A DNA stretch of 64,000 bases from an uncultured beta proteobacterium (GCA_963718025.1 CAVQXW010000004.1:249523-313522), one strand, 5' to 3'; positions 34,279-55,742 are shown, counted from the stretch's first letter. The notes: a model not told the origin generated them from the letters alone. Made by a program: numbers and translations.

Positions 34279-36358
34279 CCTAGCCTGGATTTCCACGCGA
34301 CGGGATTCGACTAACAGTAGCGGTGCGCCAGCGTCTACGCGCGTCCCCTAATCAGGGGATCGTACTCGTTAGTCATGTGGTGCGCCTACGGCCGGCCATT
34401 CCGCTGGCCGTTTGGTCGGCAAGCTCGATCGGTGCGGTGATGCGGCCACGACTGCCAGCCTCGTCAACAGCCCCTATCCCATAGCGAAGGCATCCCCACA
34501 ACGGATGGGGGTGGCCCGGCTATTGACAACCATCGCTTGTATGTAGCAGTATGCAGGCATGGGTATAGGGGCACCAAAAGACTTAACACAGTGCCGCCGC
34601 TACTTCGCGGAACCGTCGCACCCGCGGCAGCGCATGTATGAGGCGTTGCGCGCCTATTTCCTGGAAGGGCGTGCTTCCCAGGAAGTGGCGCGCGACTTCG
34701 GCTATACCCCCGGCTCCTTTCGCGTGCTCTGTCACGCGTTCCGCCGCGATTCCGATCCGCGGTTCTTCATCTCCCCGCCGCCCGGGCCGCGCGAGCAGCC
34801 GAAGAAGGCCAAGGCACTCGATCTGGTGATCGCGTTGCGCAAGCAGAACCACTCGGTCTACGAGATCGCCACCGCGCTCAAAGCGCGCGCGCTGCCGTTG
34901 AGTCCGACCGCGGTGCGCGAGGTGCTGCGCGCGGAAGGCTTCGCCCCGTTGCCGCGGCGCCTGGATGAGGAGCGGCCCGCGCAGCCGGGACCGACGGTGG
35001 AGCCGGTGGCGGACGCGCGCGCCTTCGGGTTGACCCCGGGGACCAAGTTCACCACCCGCGTGGGCGGGCTGTTTCTGTTTCTGCCCGATCTGGTGCGCCT
35101 TGCGGTCGAGACCTTGGCGGTGAAAGCCAAGTTGCCGGGCTCGCAAATGATTCCGGCACCGCATGCCTTACGCGCGGCACTCGCGCTCAAGCTCTGGTCG
35201 ATCGAGCGCAAGAGCCACGTCATGGCGCTGGTCGCCGACCCCGGCTTGGCCTTGTTCTGTGGCTTGAACGCGATGCCGAAGAAGAGCTACCTCAGCGAAT
35301 ATTCCTCGCGCCTCGACCATGCCCGGACCACGAGCCTGTTGGCCGCCTGGCACCGTGCGGTCGCGCACGACGCACTGTTCCCCGGCGCCTCGTTCAACCT
35401 CGATTTCCACTCAGTCCCCTATTACGGGGAAGACCCGCAGGCCGAGCGCCATTACGTCTCGATGCGTAGCCGCGCGCAGCCCTCGGTGCTCACCTTCCTG
35501 GCGCAAGACGCCAGCGGGCGGGCGTTCTGCTATTCCAATGCCGATCTGCGCAAGGGCGAAGAGGCCGAAGAGATCTTCCGCTTCATCGCCTTCTGGAAGC
35601 AGCACCACGGACAGCCTCCACGCCATCTGGTGTTCGATTCGCGACTGACCACCTACGCTCACCTCGCGCGGCTCGATGGCTTGGGGATCACGTTCATCAC
35701 GCTGCGGCGGCGCTCGCCAAGCCTGCTCGCGGAAATCGCCGGCCTGGCGCCCTCGGCCTGGCGTCGGGTGAGCCTGGATGTCCCGGCGCGCAAGTACAAG
35801 ACCCCGCGCGTGTTCGAGCAGCCGGTCACCCTCGAAGGCGCGACCCTTCGGCAATTGTTCATCCTCGATCTCGGCCACGAGGAGCCGACGATCCTGCTCA
35901 GCAATGATCGGCAGAGCACCCCGGCCAAGCTCATTGCCCGCTACGCGCAGCGCATGCTGATCGAGAACGCGCTCTCCGACGCGGTGCGCTTCTTCCACAT
36001 GGATGCGCTGTCCTCGGCCGTGGGTCTCAAAGTGGATTTCGACATGGCGCTGCTGGTGATCGCCAGCGGCCTCTACCGTCTGCTCGCGCAGCGCATGCGC
36101 GGCTACGCCGAGGCCCAGGCCCGCCACATCTTCCGTGACCTGGTCGACACCCCAGCCGACGTGCGCATCTCCGAACGCGACGTGCATCTGCGCTTCCACC
36201 GCCGCGCGCACTTGCCGATCATCATCGCATCCGGGATACTCAACGCGCCGGTCAACGTGCCTTGGTGGAACAATTACACCCTGAGCATGAGCGCTTGAGG
36301 CGGACCGAAAACAGCTCCGGTGTTAGTCCAATCACCTCGCGTGGAAATCCAGGCTAGG
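34279..36358 (+). mobile_element. unclassified IS with a DDE transposase
   Basis: perfect 22-bp IR CCTAGCCTGGATTTCCACGCGA (34279-34300 / 36337-36358), extending to 38 bp with 3 mismatches; CTAG at both ends may be the target duplication. Confidence 0.85.
34559..36298 (+). CDS. putative DDE transposase with N-terminal HTH (loosely IS1380/IS1634/IS701-like)
   Basis: only long ORF inside the IRs; acidic motifs LDFH, VFDS, IENALSD in RNase H-like spacing. Confidence 0.75.
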   Translation: MGIGAPKDLTQCRRYFAEPSHPRQRMYEALRAYFLEGRASQEVARDFGYTPGSFRVLCHAFRRDSDPRFFISPPPGPREQPKKAKALDLVIALRKQNHSVYEIATALKARALPLSPTAVREVLRAEGFAPLPRRLDEERPAQPGPTVEPVADARAFGLTPGTKFTTRVGGLFLFLPDLVRLAVETLAVKAKLPGSQMIPAPHALRAALALKLWSIERKSHVMALVADPGLALFCGLNAMPKKSYLSEYSSRLDHARTTSLLAAWHRAVAHDALFPGASFNLDFHSVPYYGEDPQAERHYVSMRSRAQPSVLTFLAQDASGRAFCYSNADLRKGEEAEEIFRFIAFWKQHHGQPPRHLVFDSRLTTYAHLARLDGLGITFITLRRRSPSLLAEIAGLAPSAWRRVSLDVPARKYKTPRVFEQPVTLEGATLRQLFILDLGHEEPTILLSNDRQSTPAKLIARYAQRMLIENALSDAVRFFHMDALSSAVGLKVDFDMALLVIASGLYRLLAQRMRGYAEAQARHIFRDLVDTPADVRISERDVHLRFHRRAHLPIIIASGILNAPVNVPWWNNYTLSMSA

Positions 36359-36962: not shown

Positions 36963-37099
36963 AGGGTCGTTCAGAGTCAACTCCGTCCCGGCGCTGACCA
37001 GCGGCTCCGCGATCTACAGCGGACCTTGACGCATCGATGGCTGCAGCGGGTCACCCAGCGGCCACTCGGTCGAATCGCGTCAACGCCGGCAGCCGGCCA
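36963..37099 (+). repeat. 137-bp direct repeat, copy 1
   Basis: identical by eye to 52201-52337 (AGGGTCGTTCAGAG...GGCAGCCGGCCA). Confidence 0.92.
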
Positions 37100-37254
37100 G
37101 GAGCCGCCGTTTGAGCCCGGCTTGGTTCTCGCTCGGTACCGGACGTTGGACCGAGGCCACTTTTCGGGGCTTGGATCGGTTGATTCTCCTGTAGCAGAGA
37201 GCCGCGGAGCCAACCTGCGACGCGCGACAGATGCGGGCTGTCGTTGAAGCATCG

Positions 37255-38064
37255 CTACTTCACGCCGTATTCCTGAGCGGTTTCCCACGCCACCTGTTGC
37301 AGGTGCGCAGCGACATCGGCGGGCAGTCCGGCCGTGTAGGCGTTGCCGACGGGCGACTTGCCAAGGAGCGATGCGTACACCGTGCACGCGGCCAGGTAGG
37401 TGCCCGCGAGGCTCGGGTGCCGCTTGTCGGGCGCGTAGAGCTCGAGGTCCGGCTTCCGCGCCACGGACTTCGCGAAGGCGAGTCCCGCGGGCACGACCTG
37501 GGCACCATTGGTCTTGCCCGCGATGGTGTACTGCTCGGCAAGTTGGCCCGTCATCTCGGGCTTGTCCTTGTACGCCCAGGACATGAACAGGATCGGGCGC
37601 GCGCCGTTGGCCCGGATCGTATCCGCGTGCTTCTTCGCATACTCGTGGAACACGGACTTCAGCTTCGCGTGTATCGGGCACTGGCTGCAGTCCATGATCA
37701 TCACGGCGTCGAACTGCCGCCCGGGCGGGTTGAAGCTGATCTCGTTATCGCCGACGAACGAGTACCTGCCGATGCGGTCGGGCCCGAGATAGCTCGCGAC
37801 GTCGTGCCAGTCGATGCCCGAGCCACTGATTGTCACCGACACACCGCGGTGCGTGATCGACTTGTCGCCGCGGGTGAGCTGCGACACGTGCCCGTGCATG
37901 CTGTTGTTGTAATAGAAGAAGCTGTTGCCGACCCACAGCAGCGTCTGCGGCGGGCCGCTCGAAACCGCCGGTGTAGCGGATGGGTTTGGGACCTGGGTCG
38001 CACAGCCTGTGATGGCGAGCAGGACGAGCAGCGGCCCGAAGACGCGGTACAGGGGGAGGGTCAT
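37255..38064 (-). CDS. SGNH-type hydrolase lipoprotein (DUF4886-like)
   Basis: ITGC lipobox; WVGNSFF; DKRHPSLAGTYLAA. Confidence 0.8.
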   Translation of the reverse strand: MTLPLYRVFGPLLVLLAITGCATQVPNPSATPAVSSGPPQTLLWVGNSFFYYNNSMHGHVSQLTRGDKSITHRGVSVTISGSGIDWHDVASYLGPDRIGRYSFVGDNEISFNPPGRQFDAVMIMDCSQCPIHAKLKSVFHEYAKKHADTIRANGARPILFMSWAYKDKPEMTGQLAEQYTIAGKTNGAQVVPAGLAFAKSVARKPDLELYAPDKRHPSLAGTYLAACTVYASLLGKSPVGNAYTAGLPADVAAHLQQVAWETAQEYGVK

Positions 38065-38222
38065 GACTTGGGTCCTATCGACACCGAATGGGTGGGGGCT
38101 CCCCGCGAGGATAGCGGATGGCGGACGACCTGTGGACGACGTGCCGGTCTGCGTCACCGAAGGGGTGGCTGCGCGTTCGCGACATCGGTCACCGACAATC
38201 GTCGAACGTGCAGGTCCGCTCG

Positions 38223-38288
38223 GGGTCGTACTGCGACCTTCAGCGATCCAACCGCTCGCGTTCAGACTCGACGGTCGCAGACCGGCCA
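38223..38288 (+). repeat. 66-bp palindromic repeat unit, copy A
   Basis: GGGTCG...CGGCCA; about 57/66 identical to 41464-41529. Confidence 0.75.
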
Positions 38289-38442
38289 CAACCAGACCGT
38301 CGTCACCACCCGCCAATCGGCATCGGAAGGACTGCCAGGAGAAGGGCGCCGCGGCCCCCGGCGTTCGCGACGTCGGCAGCCCGCGGCAAACCCGCTTCGA
38401 GGTTGCGAAGTCGCTTCATCCGCGCTTCGTTAAGTCTTGCGG

Positions 38443-40323
38443 TCAGTGGCCCTGATCGTGCGGTACGACACAGGTTGCGACAGCCGTCGTGGCGTTGCCT
38501 GCGCGATCGGTCGCGTTTGCCGACAGCGTGTAGGTGCGTCCCGGTCCATCGCCAAGGCGTGTCGCCCGAACGGAAATGATCCGCGGAGCGAGACCGGTGC
38601 CGGCCGTCACGGTGTCGGGCTGTCCCGGTGCCGCAGCTTCGCTGCTTGCAACGCTGGTATTGAAGGACGACAGGCCGGACAATCCGTCCTGTGCCGCAAC
38701 GGTCGCGACATTCACGAGCTTGTTGTTCGGGGGCCAGATCTCGCATCCGGCCGCGGGCAAACCCGAGATCGAAGGCGGTGTCTTGTCGAGTTGCACGACC
38801 AGGGTCTTGGCGGTCTCGGCATTGCCTGCGTTGTCGGTCGCATAGTAGGTGACCGTCGTCTGGCCCTCGGCGTTGATGGTCAGCGAAGCACTGCCACCGT
38901 TGACGCTCCCGACGCCGACCTGGCCGCCGGCCGTGGAAAACGTAATCTGCTTGACGCCCGAGCCGTTCGCGTTGTCGGTCGCGGTCAGCGTCACGGTCAC
39001 GTCGGCATTGTTCCAGCCGTTGGCGTTGGCGGGCGGGTTCGCCGCCGCAACCGTGGTCGGGGCCGACAGGTCGGCCCCGACCGTCGCCTGTGCGACTCGC
39101 TGCAGCTGCACGGCGACGTAAGGCGCGATCCCCAGTTCGGCCGCTGCCATTTCACCAGCCCCGAGGCTCAACGCATTGCGGCCGGTGAGCGTCTGGAACA
39201 AAACCAGTGCACTGAGGTAGGAGCCGTGCTTGCTCGCGTGCAGATAGTCGTCCCACCACAGGTTGGTCTTGTCCCCCGGCACCGCGACGGTATACGTTCC
39301 CTCGGCGTTATAAAAGCCGTCGCGCTTCGCGACATCTTCGTCCAACGCGCGCTGAAACGCGTCGCCGACCGGGATCACGCCGGCGAGACTGGGATTCGCG
39401 ATGACGTTGGCGCGTCCAGGGATCGGCTGCAACTTCGCGGCAAAGCTTGCCCGCAGGTCTGCCGTCATGCCTGCAAGTCCCGTGTCGGTGTAGTAGAGCG
39501 TGTCGGGGTAGCCGTCTGGACGGGTCGGAACGCCGTTAACAATCAAGGTGTCGACGATCGGCCGGCCGTCCGGGACGGTCGGATAGTTCGCATCGGCGAT
39601 GGTGGCAAGGTGCGGAAAGACCATGTCCGGCCGCGCCCAAGTCTGCGTCAGGTACACCTTCGTGTCGGCGCTGGCGTTCGGGTTCGCCGGGATGACGCGT
39701 GAGGTCGTGTTGCTGCACGCCAACGGCGTACCGAGTGCAAGCCTGCAGGCCGCATCGCTGCCGTATATCGCCTGATACATGCTCCTTTCCGTGAAGGTCT
39801 CGGCAGCGCCGAGGTGGACGTACTTCTCGATCTTGTCGACGTACGCGCTGAACTGGGGAAGGTTCGCGTTGGCGCCGCGCCCTGACGGCAGCGCAGCGTC
39901 GCTCTGCTCCTGCAGCACCACGATGTCCCACTTGCGCTTGGCGATGTTGCCGCGCAGGTCCCAGTCGGCGTTGGCCGTATTGAGGAAGTGTCCACGCAGC
40001 GTGGCGGCGTTGCGCGCCGACATCGACACGTTGAACTCGAAGCCGGCCTGGTCGGCGAGTCGCTTGAAGATGCCCGGGACGCCGCCCCACGGATGCGGCT
40101 CCCACGCGCGCGTGCCGGTCGTGTCGGTGAAATTCGGATCTGGCAGATCCGGCCGCGGCCGGGTCAGGTCGTCCACGTTCGCGGTGTTGTAGCTCATCAC
40201 CGGATCGAGACGCCCGAACGTGTAGCTGTTGCCGACGAACAGGATCGAACTCGGAGCGGCGATGACGGCGGAACTGGCGGTAGACGCGGCGAAGGCGAGG
40301 GCGAGCGGTACGAAACGCTTCAT
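38443..40323 (-). CDS. secreted SGNH-type protein with C-terminal beta-rich Ig-like domains
   Basis: signal peptide; FVGNSYTF, VLQEQS, DYLHASKHGSYL; TDNAGN-type repeats and WPPNNKLV in the C-terminus. Confidence 0.8.
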   Translation of the reverse strand: MKRFVPLALAFAASTASSAVIAAPSSILFVGNSYTFGRLDPVMSYNTANVDDLTRPRPDLPDPNFTDTTGTRAWEPHPWGGVPGIFKRLADQAGFEFNVSMSARNAATLRGHFLNTANADWDLRGNIAKRKWDIVVLQEQSDAALPSGRGANANLPQFSAYVDKIEKYVHLGAAETFTERSMYQAIYGSDAACRLALGTPLACSNTTSRVIPANPNASADTKVYLTQTWARPDMVFPHLATIADANYPTVPDGRPIVDTLIVNGVPTRPDGYPDTLYYTDTGLAGMTADLRASFAAKLQPIPGRANVIANPSLAGVIPVGDAFQRALDEDVAKRDGFYNAEGTYTVAVPGDKTNLWWDDYLHASKHGSYLSALVLFQTLTGRNALSLGAGEMAAAELGIAPYVAVQLQRVAQATVGADLSAPTTVAAANPPANANGWNNADVTVTLTATDNANGSGVKQITFSTAGGQVGVGSVNGGSASLTINAEGQTTVTYYATDNAGNAETAKTLVVQLDKTPPSISGLPAAGCEIWPPNNKLVNVATVAAQDGLSGLSSFNTSVASSEAAAPGQPDTVTAGTGLAPRIISVRATRLGDGPGRTYTLSANATDRAGNATTAVATCVVPHDQGH

Positions 40324-40712
40324 GGGAGCTCCGAGGCGGGGGTTGGCCGGCGGACGATAGGCACAAGAAACCCAGAGGTCAAGTATAAGTACATCGGTCA
40401 CCAGGCCTGAAAATCGCCAGCGGCGGGTATGGGTTGGGCACGGCCGCCCGGCCTCCGGCGATGGCGGGTCTACGGTTTACACCGGCCCTTCACGCGTCCG
40501 TGGCCGCTGTATGTCATCCAGCGGCCGCTCGGGTCCGTACGGTGGCTGGCCGGCGACCGGCCAACAGCTGTCGGTCGGGGTCGCCGCTGGATCGTCCGGC
40601 AAGCGGCCGTAGGCGCGCGGCGATCCCCCGACCCCGCGCGGCCAGGGAGAGCGAGCCGCCGCGCGGCGTATCGACCACGATCGGCAGCGCCGATTGCCGG
40701 TCCTTCCTGCGT

Positions 40713-41213
40713 TTACTTCTTGCGCTCAACGACCCATTCGCAGTGGGAGTCGCCATGGAGCATATTCTTGGTCAGTCTGAATGTGAAATTTGGGTTCAGA
40801 CTTTCGACAGCTCCATCCCCCCATCGTTGGTGCCCTACGCCGCAGGTGTCAAAGTCAACACCTTGCTCCTTCCATCTCTTGTGCCATGGGCATTGAGTAG
40901 TCTTTCCGACGCATCTGTCTTTGGTGGCTTCAACAACCTCGAACACAAACTCGGGCCCCATCGACGCTTGAGCAAGAAGATGTGTAATCCCTTCGATGTC
41001 CTTGGCGGTCTCGGTGGCCAGTCCAAGGTTGGCAGCAAATTCCTTTGCTCCCTTTCCGGCTCCGTACCACAGCGGACCATTGAACTCCTCAAATTTCTTC
41101 TGTCCGACAGCCTCCTTCAAGGCTTTGGAGACTGCAATGTACGCGCCGGTCAATCCTTTCGTTGCAATTTCCCACCTCGTCTTCTCGGGAATCGCTTCCA
41201 GCGGGTCAGCCAT
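40713..41213 (-). CDS. L-2-amino-thiazoline-4-carboxylate hydrolase-like / DUF6125-like protein
   Basis: QCPWHKRW...TCGVGH...GDSHCEW motif pattern; AGGAGGAGG RBS; AT-richer than its surroundings. Confidence 0.65.
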   Translation of the reverse strand: MADPLEAIPEKTRWEIATKGLTGAYIAVSKALKEAVGQKKFEEFNGPLWYGAGKGAKEFAANLGLATETAKDIEGITHLLAQASMGPEFVFEVVEATKDRCVGKTTQCPWHKRWKEQGVDFDTCGVGHQRWGDGAVESLNPNFTFRLTKNMLHGDSHCEWVVERKK

Positions 41214-41463
41214 CGATCGCCTCCTCCTGTGGACCGTGCTTCGAATTGCCCCCTGCAGCCGAACTGATTCTCGCTCCGTGCCCCAACCATTGCAAGGCGC
41301 GCGTGGTCCGACTCGGCCTCGCGGCCGTAGTCGGCGACGGCGGCGCCATGAAGGTAGGATGTCGGTCCTCGAACATCGGCGTCGTGCGACTTGTTGCCGG
41401 GGCCTCAATAGCGGCTTCCATCGCACTGTGTGTTCGCGCCGGTGTCCGGCCAATGTCGGGATC

Positions 41464-41529
41464 GGGTCGTTCTGCGACCGTCGCCGATCAAACCGCTCGC
41501 GTTCAGACTTGAAGGTCTCTGACCGGCCA
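41464..41529 (+). repeat. 66-bp palindromic repeat unit, copy B
   Basis: same length and ends as 38223-38288. Confidence 0.75.
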
Positions 41530-41699
41530 ACTGCTGTCAGTTGCGCTGGGCACCGAGATCGCTCCAGACCGGACATTGGAACGTCACCGCACCGCATGAA
41601 TCCTTGGGCTGAGATTCCCCCCGCACGGATCAGCCCAGGTTATTTCCCGGTTGCACTCACGCGTGGGCTATCGAACGGATTCGACGGCGGTCCCGCCGA

Positions 41700-42203
41700 T
41701 CAACACTGGTGCGTGAGCCCGATCACCCTGGCAAGGTAGTCCGCCAGCGCCGCCAAGTCGGCGACCCGAAAGCGCGGCAACGAGGTCTCGATAGGCTCAT
41801 CGGACACGAGCGATACGATGTTCTTGTTCCCTGGCCACCGCATGGTGCGACCGCTGGAGGGCACGCAGACCTCGACGGTCGGAATCGCCGCCGTTTTGAA
41901 CCCTTGGGCGATGACCACGTCGACCAGCGCGAGCCGCGCGAGTAGGGAGTCGAGCGATGGTTCGGGATCGGCGCCGAACTCCTGCATCAACACCAGACGC
42001 TTGTCGCCGACGAGCATGACCTCGCGACAGCCCGCTTCGCGCCGCGCGTACGACCCCTTGCCTGGTTGATCCAGGTCGAACCCGTCCGGGGCGCGCTTGA
42101 TGGTCGACACCGACCACCCGTTAAAATGGAAGGCGTGGATCAGATCCTCGACGAACGTCCCCTGGCCCAATGCGGAGGCCCCCAAGAGTCCAATGACCTT
42201 CAT
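41700..42203 (-). CDS. mobB: molybdopterin-guanine dinucleotide biosynthesis protein B-like
   Basis: VSTIKRAPDGFDLDQPGKGSY..REAG, DVVIAQGFK; P-loop degenerate. Confidence 0.8.
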   Translation of the reverse strand: MKVIGLLGASALGQGTFVEDLIHAFHFNGWSVSTIKRAPDGFDLDQPGKGSYARREAGCREVMLVGDKRLVLMQEFGADPEPSLDSLLARLALVDVVIAQGFKTAAIPTVEVCVPSSGRTMRWPGNKNIVSLVSDEPIETSLPRFRVADLAALADYLARVIGLTHQC

Positions 42204-42275
42204 TGGGCTGGGCAACGGCCAGGGAAAGCCTGAGTCATCGGCGGTTGTCGCGAGAGGGCTGTGCGCCGTCGAAGG

Positions 42276-43400
42276 TCATGTGCGGCGAGGGTGAGGCGTG
42301 TGTTCGGCAATGTTGGCGGCCCCTTGACCCTCGTACCACCCCTTGCTGGAATTGACCACCTTCACCACCAACAGCATGACCGGAACCTCGATCAGTACGC
42401 CCACCACGGTCGCGAGCGCGGCGCCGGAATTGAAGCCGAACAAGCTGATCGCGGCGGCTACCGCCAGTTCAAAGAAGTTCGAGGCTCCAATCAGTGCCGA
42501 CGGACAGGCGATGTTGTGCTTCTCTCCCAGCGCCCGGTTCAGGAGATAGGCCACCGACGAGTTGAAGAAGACCTGTATCAGAATCGGCACGGCGAGCAGG
42601 GCGATGATCAGGGGCTGGCGCAGGATGGCCTCGCCCTGAAAGGCAAACAGCAGCACCAGCGTGGCCAAGAGCGCCGCGATGGACCACGGCCCGATCTTGG
42701 CCATCGCTGCCTCGAACGCCGCCTTTCCCCTGTCGCCTCCGTCCCCCAGCAGCGACCTGCGCCAGAGCTGCGCCAGGATCACCGGGATCACGATGTAGAG
42801 CACGACCGAAGTCAGCAGCGTTGCCCATGGTACGGTGATCGCCGAGATGCCCAGCAGGAAGGCCACCAACGGAGCGAACGCCACGACCATGATGCTGTCG
42901 TTGAGCGCCACCTGCGACAACGTAAACAACGGATCACCGTTGGACAGCCGGCTCCAGACGAACACCATCGCCGTGCACGGCGCCGCGGCGAGGAGGATCA
43001 GGCCGGCGATATAGCTGTCGAGCTGATCCGCCGGCAGCCATGGCGCGAAGAGGTTGCGGATGAACAGCCATCCGAGGAAGGCCATCGAAAACGGCTTGAC
43101 CAGCCAGTTCACGAACAGCGTGACCCCGATGCCGCGCACATGCTGGCGGACTTCGTGCAATGCACCGAAGTCCACCTTCATCAGCATCGGGATGATCATC
43201 ACCCAGATCAGCAGACCGACCGGGAGATTGACCTTCGCTAATTCCAGCCGGCCGATGGCCTGAAACAGGCTGGGCAGCAACTGACCGGCGGCAATGCCCG
43301 CGACAATGCACAGGAAAACCCATACGGTCAGATAGCGCTCGAACACGCTCATGGGTGCGCGCGCAGTCGGCGTGATTGCGACTTCGGTGGGTGTCGACAT
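42276..43400 (-). CDS. acr3: ACR3 family arsenite efflux transporter
   Basis: FERYLTVWV, IIPML, AAAPCTAMVFVW, ASNFFELAVA, GVLIEVP. Confidence 0.96.
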   Translation of the reverse strand: MSTPTEVAITPTARAPMSVFERYLTVWVFLCIVAGIAAGQLLPSLFQAIGRLELAKVNLPVGLLIWVMIIPMLMKVDFGALHEVRQHVRGIGVTLFVNWLVKPFSMAFLGWLFIRNLFAPWLPADQLDSYIAGLILLAAAPCTAMVFVWSRLSNGDPLFTLSQVALNDSIMVVAFAPLVAFLLGISAITVPWATLLTSVVLYIVIPVILAQLWRRSLLGDGGDRGKAAFEAAMAKIGPWSIAALLATLVLLFAFQGEAILRQPLIIALLAVPILIQVFFNSSVAYLLNRALGEKHNIACPSALIGASNFFELAVAAAISLFGFNSGAALATVVGVLIEVPVMLLVVKVVNSSKGWYEGQGAANIAEHTPHPRRT

Positions 43401-43497
43401 CGAAGGCAAGCCTATTCGTTCGTTTGGATTACACGCCAGCGGATACGCGGTGCCCAACCCACGCCGAAGGCACAGAAATAGTTCCGCTCTGCTGCGC

Positions 43498-44022
43498 TCA
43501 GGCTGCGGCGTCGTTGGGCGTGGCCGACTTGCCGATCTCAGCGAGCTTTTTCGCAAGGCTCAAGCGGTCGAGCTTGGTGAGCGGCAAGCTGACGAACAAG
43601 CGAATGCGATTCAACAGGATGTTCCCGGTGACGGAGAAAGCCTTGCGCTTCTGCTCGTCGCTGCCTTCGACCGCGGCAGGGTCGGGAACTCCCCAGTGCG
43701 CCGTCATCGGTTGGCCGGGCCAGACCGGGCAGACTTCGCCGGCGGCGTTGTCGCAGACGGTGAACACGAAATCGAGGGGCGGGGAGCCGGGTTGTGCGAA
43801 CTCCTCCCAGTTCTTGCTGCGCATCCCCTCGGTCGGCAGCCGGGTTGCGTGCAGGAACTCCAGCGCGAACGGGTTGACTTTGCCCGTCGGGTGGGAGCCG
43901 GCGCTGTGGGACACGAATCTCCCAGCGCCGACCTGCCGAAGAATCGATTCGGCGATGATGCTGCGCGCCGAGTTACCGGTACAAAGAAAGAGGACGGTAA
44001 ACGGACGTTGTTCAGTAGCCAT
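43498..44022 (-). CDS. arsC: arsenate reductase, thioredoxin-coupled LMWP fold
   Basis: FLCTGNSARS, TVCDNAAGEVCP, HWGVPDP. Confidence 0.93.
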   Translation of the reverse strand: MATEQRPFTVLFLCTGNSARSIIAESILRQVGAGRFVSHSAGSHPTGKVNPFALEFLHATRLPTEGMRSKNWEEFAQPGSPPLDFVFTVCDNAAGEVCPVWPGQPMTAHWGVPDPAAVEGSDEQKRKAFSVTGNILLNRIRLFVSLPLTKLDRLSLAKKLAEIGKSATPNDAAA

Positions 44023-44132
44023 TCTTGGACTCCATGGAATGGGAAAATGGATCTGGTGTATGGGGCGAGTAACGCACTCGACGCCCGTGACGAGCAGCGC
44101 GAAGAACGGACCGCGCGGATGCAACTCAATGT

Positions 44133-44645
44133 TCAAGCAGGAGGACGACTGCGAAACGTGACGGGTGCTGCTGCCTGTGCGCAACATGCTTCGGCATGCG
44201 CTGGCGCGAGCCCACGGTCGGTCGGGCAGCAGCCTGCCGTCGGGGTGGCCGCTTCCGGAGGCGTGTCGCCGTCGAAATAGGGAATGCTGTCGAGCGTGTG
44301 GTACCCCTCCCAGGCGATGCCCTGCGGATCGGTGACCCAGTGCTTGTCTGATTTCGCGTAGCAGCAGTTGCTGCCCGGCTCATCGAGTACTGTTGCGGCG
44401 TCGGCTGCAGCGAAACGCTCGCGAATGCCTCCGAGTTCCTCTGCAGAGTCAACCTGCAGACCGAGATGATTCACGCCGCTCCGGCCGCCGCGCTGCGAGA
44501 TCGCGAAGTTGAGGCGCGGATCGTCGACCATCCATTTCGCGTAATCGGTCTTGCGGACCGTGGGTGGCGCGCCGAACATCGCCGAATAGAAGCGAATGCT
44601 CTGCTCAAGGTCTTCGACACCGACATGGACATGGAAGCGCTTCAT
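44133..44645 (-). CDS. arsI: ArsI/CadI family VOC protein (possible C-As lyase)
   Basis: RFHVHVGV, NHLGLQV, vicinal Cys pair NCCYAKSDKHW, WE. Confidence 0.8.
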   Translation of the reverse strand: MKRFHVHVGVEDLEQSIRFYSAMFGAPPTVRKTDYAKWMVDDPRLNFAISQRGGRSGVNHLGLQVDSAEELGGIRERFAAADAATVLDEPGSNCCYAKSDKHWVTDPQGIAWEGYHTLDSIPYFDGDTPPEAATPTAGCCPTDRGLAPAHAEACCAQAAAPVTFRSRPPA

Positions 44646-45016
44646 GCGGATTTCCTCTTGCGGGTGGAGGGCAGTGCTTGCGCCAAGGGCTGCGGGGCTC
44701 CCACGGGGACGCAGGCCGCGTCGCAAACAGCGCTGGAGCCGCAGCAGTTTTCGGTGAGGTAGCCGACCAGACCATTCATCGCATCGAGATCGGCGCGGTA
44801 CCAGATGAACCTGCTCTGCGGATGCGCGGCAATGAGCCCCGCGTGCGCCAGTTCCTTCAGATGAAAGGAGAGCGTCGCCGGTGGCAGGCCGAGGCGCTCG
44901 GCAATGGCCCCAGCCGGCAAGCCCTCTGGGGCGTGCTCGACCAACAGGCGAAACACCGCGAGGCGGTTTTCCTGTGCCAGCGCGCTAAGGGCTACCAATG
45001 CATCCTTGGTTTTCAT
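44642..45016 (-). CDS. arsR: ArsR family repressor with C-terminal Cys pair
   Basis: ALAQENRLAVFRLL, LSFHLKEL, LTENCCG. Confidence 0.93.
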   Translation of the reverse strand: MKTKDALVALSALAQENRLAVFRLLVEHAPEGLPAGAIAERLGLPPATLSFHLKELAHAGLIAAHPQSRFIWYRADLDAMNGLVGYLTENCCGSSAVCDAACVPVGAPQPLAQALPSTRKRKSA

Positions 45017-45023
45017 GTTTCTA

Positions 45024-45052
45024 ATAATATAAAAGTATACGAGCGATGTCAA
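45024..45052 (-). promoter_or_regulatory. sigma70 promoter of the ars operon
   Basis: minus strand TTGACA (45052-45047), 17 bp, TATTAT (45029-45024), 7 nt before the arsR ATG. Confidence 0.8.
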
Positions 45053-45182
45053 TCTCACGCAGAGCGGGCGAGATCTCGCTCGGCCGGAACGTCCAGAATC
45101 CCGGCCACTTGGCGAAAAATGGGCGCCCCGCAAGGCGCCCAATGTGCATCAACGCGGAGGAGGAAGCCGCGTTTCCCCCCGT

Positions 45183-47663
45183 TTACACCCGGTCGTATCG
45201 CCGACTCTTGAAGCTGATCGTGTCGCGATGTTCGGCGCCGCTGCCGGCGCGCCGGATGCTGGCCCAAGTCCCTTTGTAATACGGGATGATGTTGCGGTCG
45301 GTCCAATTGGTCGTGACATCACCCTGCACGCCGTTGTCGTAGCCGAACTGCATGAAGGTCTGGCCGGGCTTCTGGTCCGGTTCGGGGTAGGCCATTGCGA
45401 ACGTCGCGCCCCAGTCGTTGTAGACCTCGACGAAGTCTCCGGCCTCGATCTTGAGCGACGCCATGTCGTCAGGATTCATCTCGATGATGGACATGGGATA
45501 GCGGCCCCGCACGTAGGCGTTGTACTTGTTGTGGTAGCCGGTCTGCCAGACCTCGTTGATGCGCCCGTTGTTGATCCAGAACCGATGCTTGGCCTTGAGG
45601 TCGGCGACGGGTTTGGGCAATCCCGGCCACGGTGAAGGCAGGAACTTAGCCTTGCCATCGGCCGTGTCGAACTTGCCATCCATGTACAGCATCTCGGTGC
45701 CGATCAGCTTGCCGTCCTTGTACTCCTTGATGGGCAGCTGCACGCCGTTGTTGCCCATCACGCGCAGGCGCTCGTAGGTGGCGAGGTTCCCGGTGCCGCC
45801 ACCCTGGCTGTCGATGGGGGGCGATCCCGGCTGGCCGGCCCGGCGGAACCCATCGTTGAACACGTCTTCCTCGGCCTTCCACTCGAAGCCGTCGAAGCGC
45901 GCAGCCATAGTGGCATTGCCCTCTGCCCGGTACATCGACTTCAGCGAGTTTGCAATCGCAGCTGCGATCAGGCAATCCGGCCGCGCGGTGCCAGGTGGGT
46001 CCATGAATTTCTGGGACAGCCGGCAGCGGCGTTCGCCGTTCATCGACGTGAGATTCATCTCTCCCGGATGCGCCGCGGGCAGGAGCATGCTCGACGCCTC
46101 GGAGAACATTACCGGATAGAGATCGATGGTCGTCACGAACAGACCACCCTTGTTGCAGGCGTCGACAATCACATCGACCATCTGAGCGGGCGTCGCCCCA
46201 CGCGCCTTATTCATCGCGTCCTTCACGATGTTGGAGCGACGGTGGATCTCGGTCCGGTACGCCTGAGCGTTCAGCGTTGTCTGGAAATTGTTGCAGCCCC
46301 AGGCGGTCAGCATCTTGCCTTTGCCCTTCATCAACTCCTCGTCGATGAAGATCTTGCTGTTACCGGGATAGGGCGGACGCGTATAGCCCTCCTGGTGGCC
46401 GCCCATGCGCACGCAGCCGGTGCCGCGACGGCCGACGTTCCGGGTCGCAAGCACGAGATCGACCAGCGCCGACTGGATCAGATAGTTGTCATTGCCCCAG
46501 ATGATGCCTTTCTCGTACGCATGCATGGTCCTGGGCAGCACGCCCGGAGCCTTTGGCTTGTAGGCCCATTCCGCCGCCTGTCGGAGCTTGGCAACGGAGA
46601 CGCCCGTGATGCGGCTGCACTCGTCGAGCGAGAGCTTGTTCGCGGCGACCACAGCGTCGAATCCGGTCGTGTTCTTGGCGATGAAATCGCGGTCGATCCA
46701 CCCTTGGTCGACCACGTAGGTGAAGAGGCCATTGAACAGTGCGATGTCGGTGCCGGGCTGGATGTCGAGATGCAGCACGCGGTCCTTGGCGACCTGTTCG
46801 GCAATGGCAATGGTGTTCGTGCGACGCGGATCGACAAAGATGACGCGAGTGGGGGGTAGCGGTTCGTTGGGGAACCACTGTTTGCGCTTGGCCTCAGTGC
46901 CGCCTTGCAGGTTCGGTATCCAGTGCGCGAGGAAGTAGTTGGTTTGCGTTTCGTACTGGTTCGCGCCGATACCCATGATGCAGTCCGCGACTTCGGCGTC
47001 CTCGTAGGAATTGTTGAGCTCACCAACCCCCATGTCGCGCGTCGCATGGCATTCAGAGTTATAGGCCGGCCGATTGTGAATGCGCACCATCGGCGTTTGT
47101 AGGGCCGTGAACATCAGCTTGCCCGTGCCCCAGGTATTCTCGAACCCGCCGCCGGCACCGCCGTGGTCGAAGCAGTTGAACACGAGCCCCGAAGGGCCGT
47201 CCTTATCGAGTATCTTCTTCGCGACGCCGCAATAGATCGCGAGCGCGTCGTCCCAGGTCGTGTCCACCCACTGTGCGCCGGTAAAAAGCCGCGGTGACTT
47301 GAGCCGCGCCTTGGCGTCGCCACTCGGGTTGTACATGTAGGTCGCCATCTGCCCGCCGCGTACCGATGACAGGCCCTGATTCACCGAGCACGCCTTGTCG
47401 GGAAGAATCATGACGTTATAGCGGCGTCCGTCCGAGTCCTCGATCAGGTTGTGCATCGCCGGCGTCATGATCTGCGTGAGCGGTGCCACTTGCGTCCGGA
47501 AGTCGACGCCAAGTGCATTCTGGTCCGGTGACCGTCCGCCCTCGCGGTTCTCGTCCCACTTGTAAACGTGGTATCCGCAACCCACGATGCAGAAGTGACA
47601 GGTCAGGTTGGTCTTCTGCGCGTTGACGGGCGGCAGCGGAAGGCGATCCTTGAATTGCGCCAT
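45183..47663 (-). CDS. aioA: arsenite oxidase large (molybdopterin) subunit
   Basis: CHFCIVGC...GLSSVRG [3Fe-4S] motif, [33 protein letters not shown]. Confidence 0.97.
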
Positions 47664-47674
47664 GGTGTCGCCCC

Positions 47675-48199
47675 CTATAGGATGTTGGATTGACGGCCGT
47701 AGATCAGGCCGGCCACCGCGACGGCGGTCACACTGCCGGTCGAGGCGTCATATTCGAGGACGATCCGTGCCAGGTCTTCCGTGGCCTGCCCGCACACCAT
47801 TTGCCCGCCTTTTTCGGCGTCGAAAGTGCTGTAGTGGCAAGGGCACTTGAAACAACGTGACTTCGCGTCATAGGCGACCGGGCAGCCCATGTGAGAGCAA
47901 AGGGTGCTGTAGGCGACGATGTCGCGGCCAGGCCCAACACCGCCTTCGACCGGCTTCCCCATCCGAATCACCGTGCACGGCGACGAGTCGTCGGGGTAGC
48001 TGAAGGCGGCCGCCTGGCCCATGGCCATCTGCCCCGCCGCGCCCAATGGTTTGCGCGGGTAGGGGAGGACCGTGTTGCCGGCGTCGGCCGTGGTGGCGGC
48101 GAGAGCCGCTTCGGGAATCGCCCCGGTTACTAATCCGGCCCCTGCCGCAAGGCCACCCGACTTCTTAAAAAATTCTCTCCGCGAGAGCTTGTCGCTCAT
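47675..48199 (-). CDS. aioB: arsenite oxidase small Rieske subunit with Tat signal
   Basis: SRREFFK Tat motif; CSHMGC and CPCHYS Rieske ligands. Confidence 0.96.
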
Positions 48200-48257
48200 C
48201 GTTTTTCCTCCAAGGATTATTGTCGTGGACCAACAGCTGGGATTACCCTGTTGGCAA

Positions 48258-48273
48258 TGCACGTTTCATTCCC
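48258..48273 (-). promoter_or_regulatory. possible sigma54 -24/-12 promoter of aioBA
   Basis: minus strand GGGAATGAAACGTGCA gives GG-N10-GC; partial consensus match; AioR is a sigma54 activator. Confidence 0.4.
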
Positions 48274-48333
48274 GTGACAAGGGGCCGAGTACGCGCGCTA
48301 AATCAGTGGGTTAGCGGTATAGAAGGCTGCGGT

Positions 48334-48393
48334 GTTACCAGCTGGTAACCAAACTCGCGGGCGGCCGCGTTCAGGTGGTCACCGCCAGGTAAC
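48334..48393. promoter_or_regulatory. paired palindromes, candidate AioR enhancer sites
   Basis: perfect GTTACCAGCTGGTAAC (48334-48349) and GTCACCGCCAGGTAAC (48378-48393). Confidence 0.55.
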
Positions 48394-48435
48394 GGCGCGG
48401 AAATGCGGTCACTACTTGACTAGAATCTGCAAACT

Positions 48436-49356
48436 ATGGCGTCGGCGAATCAGGAAGGGCAGGTGAAGAACAACGACCACCCTCGGAAGGTGTCCAAGCG
48501 AGAGTTTTGCGCGGCGGCTATCGCGATAGCGGCGGCCCTGCCTCGCGTCGCGCTGGGCGCTTCGGAAGCGCCAATCCGCATCGGCACAACCTCAGTGATT
48601 CTCGACAACCAGGTTGGCTTTTTGCACGCCTGGCGCGACTACCTGCAACCCCGGCTGGGCCGGCCGGTCACGTTTCTGCAGCGCGGCAGCTATCGCGAAA
48701 TCACCTCCATGCTCATGGGCGACGAATTGGACTTCGCCTGGGTGTGCGGGTACCCCTATGTGCGCAATCGCGCCGCATGGGAACTCGTTGCATTGCCGAA
48801 CTATGGCGGCAAGCCGCTCTACCGGTCATACCTGATCGTGCCGGCCACCGACAAGTCTGCCCAAGGCTTCGACGCGCTGGCCGGCAAGGTATTCGCCTAT
48901 TCCGATCCGGACTCGAACTCGGGGTTCCTTGTCCCGCAGTTCGAAATGTTACGAACCGGTATCTATCCACCCACACACTTCCGCAAGACGTTCTTCACCT
49001 ATGCGCATCACAAGGTTGTGGCCGCCGTCGCCGATGGCGTCGCGCAGGGCGGAGCGGTCGACGGATATGTTTGGGAGACGCTTGCGCTGCGCGCGCCGGA
49101 ACTCACTCGACGCACGCGGGTCGCGCACGTTTCTGATGAGTATGGGTTTCCGCCGATGGTTGCGCGCCGCTCGCTCGACCGCGCGACGTACACGGTATTT
49201 CGCGACACGCTGCTTGCGATGCCCAACGACGCGCGCGGTCGCGAACTTCTGCAGCAACTCAATCTCGACGGCTTCCTGCCGCCTGACGATGCTCAGTTTG
49301 CCGGAATCGCCCACGTGCTTGAATTCGTCTCGTCTCGCGAACGGCTACCGACCTAA
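48436..49356 (+). CDS. aioX: periplasmic arsenite-binding protein (PhnD-like fold)
   Basis: Tat-like KREF leader; FAWVCGYPY with conserved Cys; SDPDSNSG; start 48436 or 48463. Confidence 0.9.
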   Translation: MASANQEGQVKNNDHPRKVSKREFCAAAIAIAAALPRVALGASEAPIRIGTTSVILDNQVGFLHAWRDYLQPRLGRPVTFLQRGSYREITSMLMGDELDFAWVCGYPYVRNRAAWELVALPNYGGKPLYRSYLIVPATDKSAQGFDALAGKVFAYSDPDSNSGFLVPQFEMLRTGIYPPTHFRKTFFTYAHHKVVAAVADGVAQGGAVDGYVWETLALRAPELTRRTRVAHVSDEYGFPPMVARRSLDRATYTVFRDTLLAMPNDARGRELLQQLNLDGFLPPDDAQFAGIAHVLEFVSSRERLPT

Positions 49357-49359
49357 GTC

Positions 49360-50805
49360 ATGGCTACGCTTGACGACCTTAGTTACCGGGTCAAGGTCCC
49401 GCTGGCATTGTTGGCGGTCATCGTCGTCGTGTCGGCGATTCTGGCTGCGCTTCTCGGAGCACAGATCTATGCGGACGCACGGCGTGACCTGCTCGGGAAT
49501 GCCGAGAGTCTCGGGCGGACGCTGGCGCGAGCACTGACGCCAGCGATGCTCCGCGACGATGTCTGGCAAGCCTACGAAACGATTGTCGCTCCACTCGCAG
49601 GCGAGACTGGCGAGGGAAGCGGGCGCCGTTCGATCACCGTCCTCGATGCGGACGGCAAGATCTATGCATCGTCCGACCCGGCGCGATTTCCGATGCTCGC
49701 GCCCGCTACGCAAACGTTGGGGCCGGCGGCCGAGAAGCTGCTATCTCCCGGAGATGACAAGAGTCCCACCGTCGTCGAAGACCCTTCGACCAAGGTCATT
49801 CTGGTCGGCGTGCCTATAGTCGCGGATGATGGCGCGCGGCTCGGCAGCGTTGTGCTCAGCTTTTCGCAGGATGTCTTCGTCCCGCGCTTCTTCACGACGG
49901 TGGAGCGAGTCGTCTTGTCTACCTTGGTCGCTCTCGTCGTGCTGGTGCCGATTGGCTGGTGGTTCGGACGGCGGATGGCCGCGCCGCTCGTGGGCCTCGC
50001 CGCCGCGATGAAACGCGTTGGTGAAGCCCCGCCGACGGAGTTGGCGCGAGGGCTTTATCGTAGCGGTGACGAGATCGGGCAGCTGGGCAACCGCTTTGAG
50101 CAAATGGTCATTGAGCTGGAGGGGAAGCAGCGGCTTGAACGCGAGATCGTTGCGGCGGACCGGCTGGCTGCCATCGGCCGCTTGACCGCCGGAATCGCCC
50201 ATGAGATCAACAATCCGCTGGCCGGCATGATTACCGCAATCGATACTGCTCGAAAGCACGGCGAGCCTGATCCCATTTCCGCAAGCACGCTGTCTCTGGT
50301 CGAACGTGGGCTGCAGCAAATTCGCCATTCGGTCAGCGCACTGTTGGTCGAGGCGCGGTTCGAGGCCCGCGCGCTGACACCGCAGGACATTGACGATGTT
50401 CGCACGCTGTTGGAACCGGAAGCCGCGACGCGCGAGCAGACGTTGCAGTGGGAAAGCCACCTGGACCGCGCGCTGCCGCTGCCTTCGACACCCATTCGCC
50501 AAATCCTGATCAACCTGATCCTGAACGCGATCCAGGCGGCCGGTCGGGGAGGGACCGTTTCGTGCCGCATTCAGGCGGATGCCTCACAGATGTCCTTCGA
50601 AGTTCGCAATGACGGACGCTCCATTCCCGACGAATTGATGGAGCACCTGTTCGAGCCGTTCTCCACTGGATCGGAAGGCGGCAGCGGGCTCGGGTTGTGG
50701 GTGACCTACCAGATCGTTGAGCAGCTGCGCGGCACGATTCGCGTGCGCAGTGGGCTGCCGGAGACGGAATTCGCGGTCGCCCTACCGCTTGGCGCTGCCG
50801 CATGA
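49360..50805 (+). CDS. aioS: sensor histidine kinase
   Basis: two TM helices, HAMP, AHEINNPL H-box, NAIQA, GLGL; between aioX and aioR. Confidence 0.92.
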   Translation: MATLDDLSYRVKVPLALLAVIVVVSAILAALLGAQIYADARRDLLGNAESLGRTLARALTPAMLRDDVWQAYETIVAPLAGETGEGSGRRSITVLDADGKIYASSDPARFPMLAPATQTLGPAAEKLLSPGDDKSPTVVEDPSTKVILVGVPIVADDGARLGSVVLSFSQDVFVPRFFTTVERVVLSTLVALVVLVPIGWWFGRRMAAPLVGLAAAMKRVGEAPPTELARGLYRSGDEIGQLGNRFEQMVIELEGKQRLEREIVAADRLAAIGRLTAGIAHEINNPLAGMITAIDTARKHGEPDPISASTLSLVERGLQQIRHSVSALLVEARFEARALTPQDIDDVRTLLEPEAATREQTLQWESHLDRALPLPSTPIRQILINLILNAIQAAGRGGTVSCRIQADASQMSFEVRNDGRSIPDELMEHLFEPFSTGSEGGSGLGLWVTYQIVEQLRGTIRVRSGLPETEFAVALPLGAAA

Positions 50806-52145
50806 CGGCGAAACTTTGCCTCATCGAGGACGACCCGATCATGGGGGAATCGCTACACCAGCGATTGTCACTGGAGGGATTCGACTGCGACTGGCACCGT
50901 ACCGGGACGGCAGCGCTCGCCGCGCTTGAACGTGAGGCGTACGCTGCCGTGGTTTCGGATGTGCGCCTACCGGATCTCTCGGGCGAGGCATTGTTTCGCG
51001 CCGCGCTCGACCGCGACGAACATGCACCGCCGTTTGTGTTTGTCACCGCGTACGGATCGATTGATCGCGCGGTTGAGCTGATCAAACTTGGCGCCGCCGA
51101 CTATGTAACGAAGCCGTTCGACGTTGAGCAGCTTATTCTGAAGCTGAAGGTGCTGGCAGGTGTGCCGGACAAGATTTCGACCTCAGCTGGGCGTGCTGAA
51201 CTCGGGACATCCGCGGCAGCGCGCCGGGTCGAAGAGCTATTGCCGCGAATCTCCCAGCTTGCCGATACGGTTCTCATCACCGGCGAATCAGGCGTAGGCA
51301 AGGAGCGCATTGCGCAGATTCTGCATCGATTGGGCGATGCCGATGGTGGCGCACCGTTCATCGCCGTGAACTGTGCCGCCGTCAGCGAATCTTTGCTTGA
51401 GGCGGAGTTGTTTGGCCATGAACGCGGGGCGTTCACCGGTGCGATTCGGACAAGGCGCGGCGTGTTCGAGCAGGCCGAGGGCGGAACTTTGTTCCTCGAC
51501 GAGATAGGCGAGATGACGCCAGGTATGCAGGCGAAGCTATTGCGGGCGATCCAGGAGCGGGAGATCGTCCGCGTGGGTGGAGAAAGACGTATTCCAGTGC
51601 GCCTTCGGCTGATTTGCGCAACCAATCGCAATCTGCAGGAACTCGTCGACGACGGACGCTTCCGGCGCGACCTGTACTATCGCATAAACGTTATTCACCT
51701 GCGATTGCCGGCGCTGCGCGAACGTCGCGACGATATTCTTTGGTTTGCAAGAACGTTCCTCGCTGAGCGATGCCGCACCCACGCGGTTGCAAGGCGGCTA
51801 AGTGTGGCCTCCGAGTCGGCACTGCTCGCCCACGACTGGCCCGGTAATATTCGCGAATTGCGTCATGCAATCGAGCGCGCGTGCATCCTGTCGCAGCGTC
51901 TTGTGATTGAACCGGACGACCTGTTCGAGTCACTCGCTGGAGAGTCCTCTGTCGTTCCGGTTGAGGGCGATTCGACACTAAGCGACTATCTGCAGCGGGG
52001 TGAGCGATACTTCATCCTCGAAACCTTAGAACGGCATGGTTGGCAAATTGGGGCGTCCGCGCGGGTGCTAGGTATCAGTCGGAAGAATCTTTGGGAGCGC
52101 ATGCGCCGACTAGCTATCGCCGCGAGCGACACGCGAGACAACTAG
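50802..52145 (+). CDS. aioR: sigma54-dependent response regulator
   Basis: receiver domain, GESGVGKE, GAFTGA, WPGNIREL, C-terminal HTH. Confidence 0.93.
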   Translation: MTAKLCLIEDDPIMGESLHQRLSLEGFDCDWHRTGTAALAALEREAYAAVVSDVRLPDLSGEALFRAALDRDEHAPPFVFVTAYGSIDRAVELIKLGAADYVTKPFDVEQLILKLKVLAGVPDKISTSAGRAELGTSAAARRVEELLPRISQLADTVLITGESGVGKERIAQILHRLGDADGGAPFIAVNCAAVSESLLEAELFGHERGAFTGAIRTRRGVFEQAEGGTLFLDEIGEMTPGMQAKLLRAIQEREIVRVGGERRIPVRLRLICATNRNLQELVDDGRFRRDLYYRINVIHLRLPALRERRDDILWFARTFLAERCRTHAVARRLSVASESALLAHDWPGNIRELRHAIERACILSQRLVIEPDDLFESLAGESSVVPVEGDSTLSDYLQRGERYFILETLERHGWQIGASARVLGISRKNLWERMRRLAIAASDTRDN

Positions 52146-52200
52146 AGTCCGCTTTCGGCTAAACCGAACGCCGGCTCGCGGCAGGGCCGAACGTCCGGAG

Positions 52201-52337
52201 AGGGTCGTTCAGAGTCAACTCCGTCCCGGCGCTGACCAGCGGCTCCGCGATCTACAGCGGACCTTGACGCATCGATGGCTGCAGCGGGTCACCCAGCGGC
52301 CACTCGGTCGAATCGCGTCAACGCCGGCAGCCGGCCA
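52201..52337 (+). repeat. 137-bp direct repeat, copy 2
   Basis: identical by eye to 36963-37099. Confidence 0.92.
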
Positions 52338-52574
52338 TTACCGGCCATTCTCGAAACTCATTCGTTCTGACGAAGAGCGGTCACTCGTTGACCCCCTGCA
52401 ATCCCGGGGACCATACTCGTGTGCCGATCGCTCCCTTCGCGGATAAGATCCGGCTACATCAATTTCATCGCCGAGAGCGATGATGCCGCGCACGGCGACC
52501 GGCAAGATCCTGTCCCGCCGCCGGCGTGACCGGTTCACTCGTTGACTGATCTGCACTCGACTCCGGAGGAAAAC

Positions 52575-53636: not shown

Positions 53637-53767
53637 AGACTTAGGCGTCGTCGCTTTTCGGCCAGAAGCGGTCGGTTTCAGCCACTGCCAGTGTCCCCTC
53701 GCAGCCGGGGCGCCCCTATGCTAGTCCAGTGTAACGGTCGAGGACAAAACGTCGCTACCGGATGCGC

Positions 53768-54290: not shown

Positions 54291-54392
54291 TCGCCTCGGA
54301 TGGGTGCCGCTTGCCGTGGAAATGGACGAAGCGTTTAATCCCGTCGAAGTAAGGTTGCTCGGTGCATGGGCCGTGGTGTTTGACGCAGATGA
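54291..54392 (-). pseudogene. integron integrase (IntI) N-terminal remnant
   Basis: KHHGPCTEQPYFDGIKRFVHFHGKRHPSE resembles the IntI consensus KHYSxRTEQAYxxWIKRFxxFHGKRHPxE. Confidence 0.7.
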
Positions 54393-55594: not shown

Positions 55595-55742
55595 CCCTGT
55601 GGAACAGGAGCAGCGTTGTCGGGTTGACCAGCACACCCAGCTTCGGAATCCGGCGCGGGCACACGAACAGCGTCGTCAGCCCGAGCGCCACGCGATCGAG
55701 CGTGGTCAGATTCGAGGCGCGGCCTCGCGAGCGATTACTGAT
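55592..55742 (-). pseudogene. fragment of a second rve-type transposase
   Basis: minus frame SNRSRGRASNLTTLDRVALGLTTLFVCPRRIPKLGVLVNPTTLLLFHRA resembles the N-terminal region of this family. Confidence 0.5.

Follow-up and report, generated by a model that had tools for sequence, protein, structure and literature searches.

The DNA analysed here (the window) comprises 64,000 nucleotides of one strand from an uncultured beta proteobacterium (GCA_963718025.1, CAVQXW010000004.1:249523-313522), whose genome of 4.88 Mb is assembled in seven contigs and in which the window corresponds to C4:249523-313522. A low-G+C island spanning approximately 32 to 58 kb of the window contains an arsenic locus with aioBA, aioXSR and an ars operon, and this locus is enclosed by two identical direct repeats that belong to a family of small non-coding elements, here termed EL. 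The repeats at 36963-37099 and 52201-52337 agree at 137 of 137 bases in the same orientation, with the match ending sharply on both sides and a start-to-start distance of 15,238 bp, as an earlier note on this DNA had described. The 137-bp unit reads (A)GGGTCG at its start and CGGCCA at its end. As a third identical copy elsewhere in the genome carries T in place of the A found at 36963 and 52201, the copied unit is 136 nt long. Three further family members, one diverged EL and two copies of a 66-nt sister element (D3), lie inside the segment, so that the supposed 15.2-kb unit is a stretch with five co-oriented elements in 15.4 kb. These elements and their flank motifs are:

36964..37099, plus strand: EL-A, the left 136-nt element (GGGTCG…CGGCCA), identical to two other copies in the genome
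36955..36959, plus strand: left flank motif G.C.G of EL-A (positions -9, -7, -5), with the mirror motif C.G.C at 37104-37108
38223..38288, plus strand: D3a, 66-nt sister element (GGGTCGT…CCGGCCA) with the same termini, an imperfect hairpin
40431..40563, plus strand: EL-div, diverged full-length member within the segment (GGGTTG…CCGGCCA; nhmmer E=1.2e-12)
41464..41529, plus strand: D3b, second 66-nt sister element, abutting the low-coordinate edge of the arsenic module
52202..52337, plus strand: EL-B, the right element, identical to EL-A; an independent Logan contig stops 30 nt into it
52193..52197, plus strand: left flank motif G.C.G of EL-B, with the mirror motif C.G.C at 52342-52346
53641..53675, plus strand: possible degenerate right-end relic, …TTCGGCCA-GAAG-CGGTC, without the left flank motif, recognized by eye only

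The element is dispersed through the genome. The third identical copy (136/136, BLAST) is located at C4:628885-629020, 327 kb away, between SnoaL-like and methyltransferase genes in another accessory region that contains an IS91-like and an IS4-like insertion sequence (IS), a KAP NTPase gene and DUF6345. Full-length copies of 75-77% identity were found by BLAST on contigs C2 and C3, and an nhmmer profile built from the diverged copies recovered 11 EL copies genome-wide (three identical and eight diverged, among them EL-div). D3, with the same termini as EL, has six copies. When EL copies were aligned together with their flanks, similarity extended from GGGTCG to CGGCCA in all of them, while the surrounding sequences were unrelated.

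A similar picture emerged from other organisms. The conserved core of the element was used as an 18-mer to scan 185,579 species genomes, followed by BLAST and nhmmer, and full-length copies of 72-83% identity were found, nearly all of them in metagenome-assembled genomes (MAGs) from soil labelled as uncultured beta proteobacterium. In each of eight MAGs of soil Betaproteobacteria, BLAST gave 3-36 matches, which cluster at a spacing of 1.3-5 kb, and neighbouring pairs are co-oriented in about 31 of 37 cases (hand count). Both D3 and EL occur at three loci, and at two of these (L070 and L026) they are interleaved and co-oriented. The genes between these elements are unrelated, accessory and found in both orientations, including RCC1/Big_2, DJ-1, thioredoxin-like, PEP-CTERM, TPR and RIO kinase genes among others. 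Only 2 of 40 relatives showed weak matches to the element, and an exact 41-mer of EL had no match in metagenome contigs.

One EL copy in another genome (G068) is interrupted at L147:7622-9016 by an IS3-family IS with HTH_Tnp_1 and rve open reading frames (ORFs). On the profile, the EL halves on either side of it share about 10 positions, suggestive of a target duplication.

Both repeats in the window are recent copies from what is probably a family of small, site-specific insertion or recombination sites, and the arsenic locus is not defined by them. The earlier note had taken the repeats as the boundaries of a unit that can excise, amplify or was recently inserted. With EL scattered through this genome and through related soil bacteria, and with copies elsewhere lying between diverse accessory genes, the repeats do not single out the arsenic genes as a separate mobile unit. 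The element is largely what that note had named as the case against its claim, a dispersed sequence unrelated to cargo limits. The position of the arsenic genes between two EL copies would reflect the make-up of this low-G+C accessory region, itself an array of elements.

The content of the segment was confirmed by Pfam domains, namely aioBA, aioXSR, the ars operon and three other genes. As had also been stated before, no recombinase is encoded inside it: no recombinase or transposase domain was detected by Pfam in the main ORFs of 36963-52337. The three genes at its low-coordinate side (37255..41597) are unrelated accessory genes with an element between each. The IS elements adjacent to the segment (34279-36358 and 54386-55601) have inverted repeats of their own. 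The genes and neighbouring features are:

34279..36358, plus strand: IS with 38-nt inverted repeats, left of EL-A
37255-38316, minus strand: DUF4886-like gene (Pfam)
38443-40401, minus strand: Ig-like gene (Pfam)
40713-41597, minus strand: ATC_hydrolase-like gene (Pfam)
41700..45000, minus strand: the ars part (Pfam)
41700-42215, minus strand: mobB (Pfam)
42276-43556, minus strand: acr3 (ACR3; Pfam)
within 43498-44187, minus strand: LMWP-type arsC (Pfam)
44133-44726, minus strand: glyoxalase/ArsI-like gene (Pfam)
45183-47663, minus strand: aioA, arsenite oxidase (Pfam Rieske_3, Molybdopterin and Rieske, for aioA and aioB together)
47675-48262, minus strand: aioB, arsenite oxidase (Pfam)
48436-49356, plus strand: aioX (Pfam)
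49360-50805, plus strand: aioS (Pfam)
50802-52145, plus strand: aioR (Pfam)
54298-54390, minus strand: remnant of the N-terminal part of an integron integrase, interrupted by an IS at 54386-55601 whose transposase has an rve domain

At the arsC/acr3 junction within the ars operon is an imperfect palindrome of 68 nt (43452-43519), whose end boxes are perfect and attC-like (GCCCAAC…GTTGGGC). A second ars operon with acr3 and arsC lies at C6:21086-22623 and is 74% identical to the copies in the window.

All five elements in the window fit the pattern G.C.G-N4-[GGGTYG…CCGGCCA]-N4-C.G.C. Conservation of the left motif is high, at 91-97% for each of G(-9), C(-7) and G(-5) across 35-43 copies, and the mirror positions C(+5), G(+7) and C(+9) are roughly as informative. 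Between each motif and the element are four weakly conserved bases. At the variable flank positions the three identical copies diverge from one another, and their identity is limited to the inner 136 nt with its invariant end hexamers, which suggests that the flanks belong to the site and that only the inner part was recently copied. A target duplication is absent, as the flanking 4-mers differ between left and right (CAAA/GGAG, GAGA/TTAC and GTTT/GCTC). About half of the right-flank 4-mers read NNAG, or CTNN on the other strand (hand count). Insertion into a hairpin loop was considered and rejected, since the left and right flanks of one copy pair no better than non-cognate flanks (p = 0.95); the conserved feature is a fixed motif and not a pairing particular to each copy.

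EL and D3 differ markedly in folding. The consensus fold of 35 diverged EL copies amounts to -0.56 kcal/mol, while D3 with its flanks forms a long imperfect hairpin with 25 pairs and a consensus of -23.4 kcal/mol. The inner inverted pair TTGACGC/GCGTCAA, to which the earlier note had drawn attention, is present in the identical copies and lost in the diverged members of the family. That the repeats are non-coding was borne out. One frame is open in the reference copy, yet stops and frameshifts occur in at least 8 of 18 copies in every frame, and EL copies display no clear codon periodicity, so that a coding remnant was rejected.

Other identities were excluded as well. Canonical attC sites are ruled out by the lack of RYYYAAC…GTTRRRY boxes at the elements in a scan of 33-58 kb. 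The genome does possess an intact integron at C2:816139-833600 (IntI at C2:816139-817152, 468 bits), whose attC sites of about 85-95 nt (GCCTAAC…GTTAGGC) are canonical and unrelated to EL and D3. A cassette block of this integron is duplicated at 98-99% identity (C2:820006-822754 versus 823405-827295). The IntI relic at 54298-54390 covers 31 residues (21-51) and is 61% identical to the genome's own IntI; as it is encoded on the minus strand, its cassette side would be at higher coordinates, away from the arsenic segment and its EL/D3 array. More IntI-like fragments occur at C3:644138-644215.

Mobilization by a REP-associated tyrosine transposase (RAYT; REP, repetitive extragenic palindrome) or an IS200-type element was rejected, since Y1_Tnp is present in only two of seven EL-bearing genomes and never beside EL. 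The absence of a target-site duplication, together with tips that match as inverted repeats at only four of six bases, speaks against a classical miniature inverted-repeat transposable element (MITE) derived from a DDE transposon. Another repeat, about 200 nt long and distinct from EL and D3, has copies of 99-100% identity at C4:629354-629556, C4:317901-318100, C4:36287-36489 and C2:1124667-1124861. It carries CCCCGGCAGAGCCGGGGG hairpins close to both ends, and one copy is about 120 bp from a Y1_Tnp pseudogene (C4:35807-36163); this repeat is probably a miniature of an IS200/IS605-type element.

A different type of element was found in several genomes directly beside the CGGCCA-type end of such sites. 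An IS of 2.56 kb that adjoins the arrays encodes, according to Pfam, both a tyrosine recombinase (Phage_integrase and SAM_4) and a Y2 transposase (Y2_Tnp and Zn_Tnp_IS91), and belongs to the IS91 family. Copies are located at L147:3428-5987 in G068, at L154, L155, L156, L158 and L159, and at C4:615478-617200 in this genome, where a Y2 ORF of 397 aa is intact and the recombinase is cut to its last 54 residues. The ends of the IS were defined from four copies of a single MAG. Its left flank is …GGCCA-N4 in five of seven copies (from five genomes), which is the end of a mini-element of 31-41 nt (GGGTCG…CGGCCA), and its right flank is N4-C.G.C in all seven, as on the right of EL. One MAG has a full EL situated directly against the recombinase gene. 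Over 110 metagenome copies of the IS the left-flank consensus is G.C.G-N4-G[G/T]G[C/T]CA-NNGG. Upstream hairpins with compensatory variation (CGGAC…GTCCG, CGGAAGT…ACTTCCG and GCTGACGAC…GTCGTCAGC) were recognized in these flanks by eye only; a consensus fold of 25 such sites with RNAalifold gave no structure, probably owing to a mixture of subtypes. At its left terminus the IS has ACTAAAC, which resembles the R'' box of attC, and a 12-mer, AAACCGCTCGCG, is common to this terminus and the D3 apex. To our knowledge, no role has been described for the tyrosine recombinase in such IS91-family elements. This genome also has a second, degenerate Y2_Tnp gene with fragmented ORFs (C3:1763056-1763577, 88 bits), at a distance of 1.8 kb from a diverged EL and a mini-element of 37 nt (C3:1761090-1761293).

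IS91 elements produce no target duplication, choose the tetranucleotide next to oriIS, and require only 89 bp of the left and 82 bp of the right end for transposition (PMC13181058). With such small ends sufficing, a non-autonomous partner as small as 136 nt is conceivable. EL resembles this family in the missing target duplication, in its functionally distinct ends and perhaps in the 4-nt stretch next to the end, which often reads CT[C/T]N on one strand, as at IS91 targets. Further points of agreement are the co-resident IS91-family element at the sites and the 12 nt common to the D3 apex and its left terminus. In contrast, EL ends do not match those of the co-resident IS, and EL has a palindromic flank motif of a kind not described for IS91.

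Taken together, EL is probably a family of small sites for insertion or recombination, with hairpin ends, which accumulates in accessory regions and does not mark an arsenic unit, a reading we hold with moderate confidence. EL (136 nt) and D3 (66 nt) would form one superfamily bounded by GGGTYG…CCGGCCA, whose sites may be placed or exchanged by a site-specific enzyme acting in trans. The best candidate for this enzyme would be the IS91-family element with its genes for an Xer/IntI-like tyrosine recombinase and a Y2 (HUH) transposase.

Several observations weigh against this interpretation. The IS ends (ACTAAACC… and …CCCTTAACA) are unlike those of EL, and end similarity is weak overall (z <= 2.5 for EL and 3.9 for D3 versus the left end of the IS); no autonomous element with EL ends was found in the genomes searched. 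Y2_Tnp occurs in 7/9 EL-bearing genomes versus 3/38 EL-free relatives, an association confounded by phylogeny and by the way the genomes were chosen, and two EL-bearing MAGs are without Y2_Tnp. The end hexamers GGGTCG and CGGCCA are nearly invariant and could be part of the target and not of what is copied, so that the exact boundaries of the mobile unit are uncertain. An empty site was not seen, and same-genus relatives are so divergent (70-86% in coding DNA) that insertion versus loss is not directly visible; an exact-protein look-up for empty sites returned matches from the source sample only. Finally, a cassette-type recombination system would account for the strong local co-orientation and the clustering no less well than independent insertions would.

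Known small repeats provide a further measure. EL is comparable to MITEs, to REP sequences and bacterial interspersed mosaic elements, and to Correia-type elements in being small, non-coding, intergenic, multi-copy and sharp-ended, in having young identical next to old diverged copies, and in its patchy distribution among genomes. It differs from them in the lack of target-site duplications and of clear terminal inverted repeats, in its arrangement in mostly co-oriented arrays rather than scattered copies, and in its conserved flanking half-site motifs. Unlike REP sequences it has no RAYT partner, with Y1_Tnp missing from most element-bearing genomes.

Alternatively, EL, D3 and the mini-elements might represent folded, attC-like sites of a gene-cassette system other than an integron, in which the stretch between co-oriented sites would be cut out in circular form and integrated again through a tyrosine recombinase provided in trans. 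Excisable stretches would then include the arsenic module from D3b to EL-B and the whole 15.2 kb. Such an undescribed integron-like system of soil Betaproteobacteria, served by the IS91-borne Xer/IntI-like recombinase, is a tentative proposal that we regard as rather unlikely. Its sites may be built in layers, with an outer G.C.G/C.G.C pair, the box pair GGGTCG/CGGCCA and a variable interior, forming a nested hairpin. This would account for the mostly co-oriented sites with one or two unrelated accessory genes in between, as in arrays of attC sites and clusters of attC sites lacking integron integrases (CALINs), and for near-identical sites beside unrelated genes, as in chromosomal integrons. 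It would also match the combination of conserved end boxes that are able to pair (GGTCG/CGGCC) with interiors of variable length (31-41, 66 and 136 nt), the nested imperfect hairpin of D3, and the presence of the recombinase-bearing IS at the sites. Elements on contig C4 are oriented plus at 286-302 kb and minus at 318-323 kb, and this switch within 16-21 kb argues against a replication-strand bias. A true integron and an integrase relic do occur in the same genome.

However, the lack of canonical boxes, the unrelated attC sites of the true integron and the missing conserved fold of EL stand against such a system. Genes are found in both orientations between the sites, and about 6 of 37 neighbouring site pairs are opposite. 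The recombinase borne by the IS in this genome is reduced to its last 54 residues. A search for cassette shuffling revealed no shared cassette in two arrays with breakpoints at the elements. Moreover, the DUF4886-like and Ig-like genes are adjacent in G009, a same-genus genome, without D3 between them. These homologues adjoin a tRNA-like sequence (L163:4461-4533 on C7 of G009, by eye), which suggests that they are island cargo there too. The Ig-like gene in G009 is half as long (314 versus 652 aa).

A wider version of this proposal concerns the IS itself, which may home to one fixed site position across many soil metagenomes, as seen in the 110 flanks (G.C.G-N4-GKGYCA-NNGG). The IS1111-attC group of the IS110 family inserts into attC sites. 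The IS91-family element would likewise target one set position within hairpin sites of a recombination-site family, with the difference that it encodes a tyrosine recombinase and is not a DEDD transposase element. If the cassette system were real, the whole 10.7-kb module for arsenite oxidation and resistance could move as one cassette.

The discrete unit of the earlier note fares less well and is in our view improbable. According to this explanation, the 15.2-kb segment and one repeat entered recently in a Campbell-type event between a circular EL and a resident EL, and would exit or amplify again through homologous recombination of the two identical copies. Two of the three identical copies are indeed direct repeats just 15.2 kb apart, and the site motif is kept at all four junctions, as expected for an exchange inside EL. 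A perfect identity of 137 bp should be enough for RecA-dependent recombination. The pair could therefore be a substrate for RecA-dependent deletion or tandem duplication of the segment, and general or site-specific recombination between the copies might excise or amplify it. Against such a unit speak the third identical copy in an unrelated place, the diverged copies across the genome, the three family members within the segment, which are older, and a G+C content without a step at either repeat.

Relatives point in the same direction. The gene content of the segment is typical of arsenic islands with aioBA-aioXSR and ars genes, and the repeats are not part of this gene set. Among 40 same-genus genomes sampled, aioBA was present in only two, G009 and G012, the latter with aioBA, aioXSR and ars genes, while ars operons were common. 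EL was not found at the aio/ars loci fetched from these relatives, and G012 has its aio block inverted with respect to the ars genes. Presence or absence of the segment as a block was not seen among the loci compared, where relatives are too divergent.

That EL is a structured non-coding RNA or a cis-regulatory leader or terminator, located near several genes by chance, is very improbable. Its intergenic position and the sequence blocks kept over copies of 72-83% identity would agree with this, as would the plus-strand fold of the single copy, which is slightly better than that of shuffled sequence (z = -1.96). The consensus fold is essentially zero, though, a search of Rfam gave no match to the elements at E <= 1, a T run of the terminator type is missing, and position and orientation relative to neighbouring genes are not fixed, so that a known RNA family or conserved fold was rejected. 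An assembly artefact, with one copy arising from mis-assembly, found no supporting point and can practically be dismissed, given the unique flanks of all three identical copies and an independent Logan short-read contig (run ERR11561443, taken as built from 31-base words), which equals 46802-52230 and breaks 30 bases into EL-B, as expected at a true multi-copy sequence.

For the arsenic locus, these results mean that the identical repeats are background copies of an element and not evidence of an arsenic transposon, and claims of mobility for this aio/ars cluster need other evidence. The element family itself is of interest, as it is small, makes no target duplication, is framed by a mirror-image flank motif, and forms mostly co-oriented arrays in accessory regions, where it is the preferred neighbour of an IS91-family element carrying a tyrosine recombinase. 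Should its sites turn out to be recombination substrates, they would offer an explanation for the way in which these soil bacteria join unrelated accessory modules, large ones among them, into rows.

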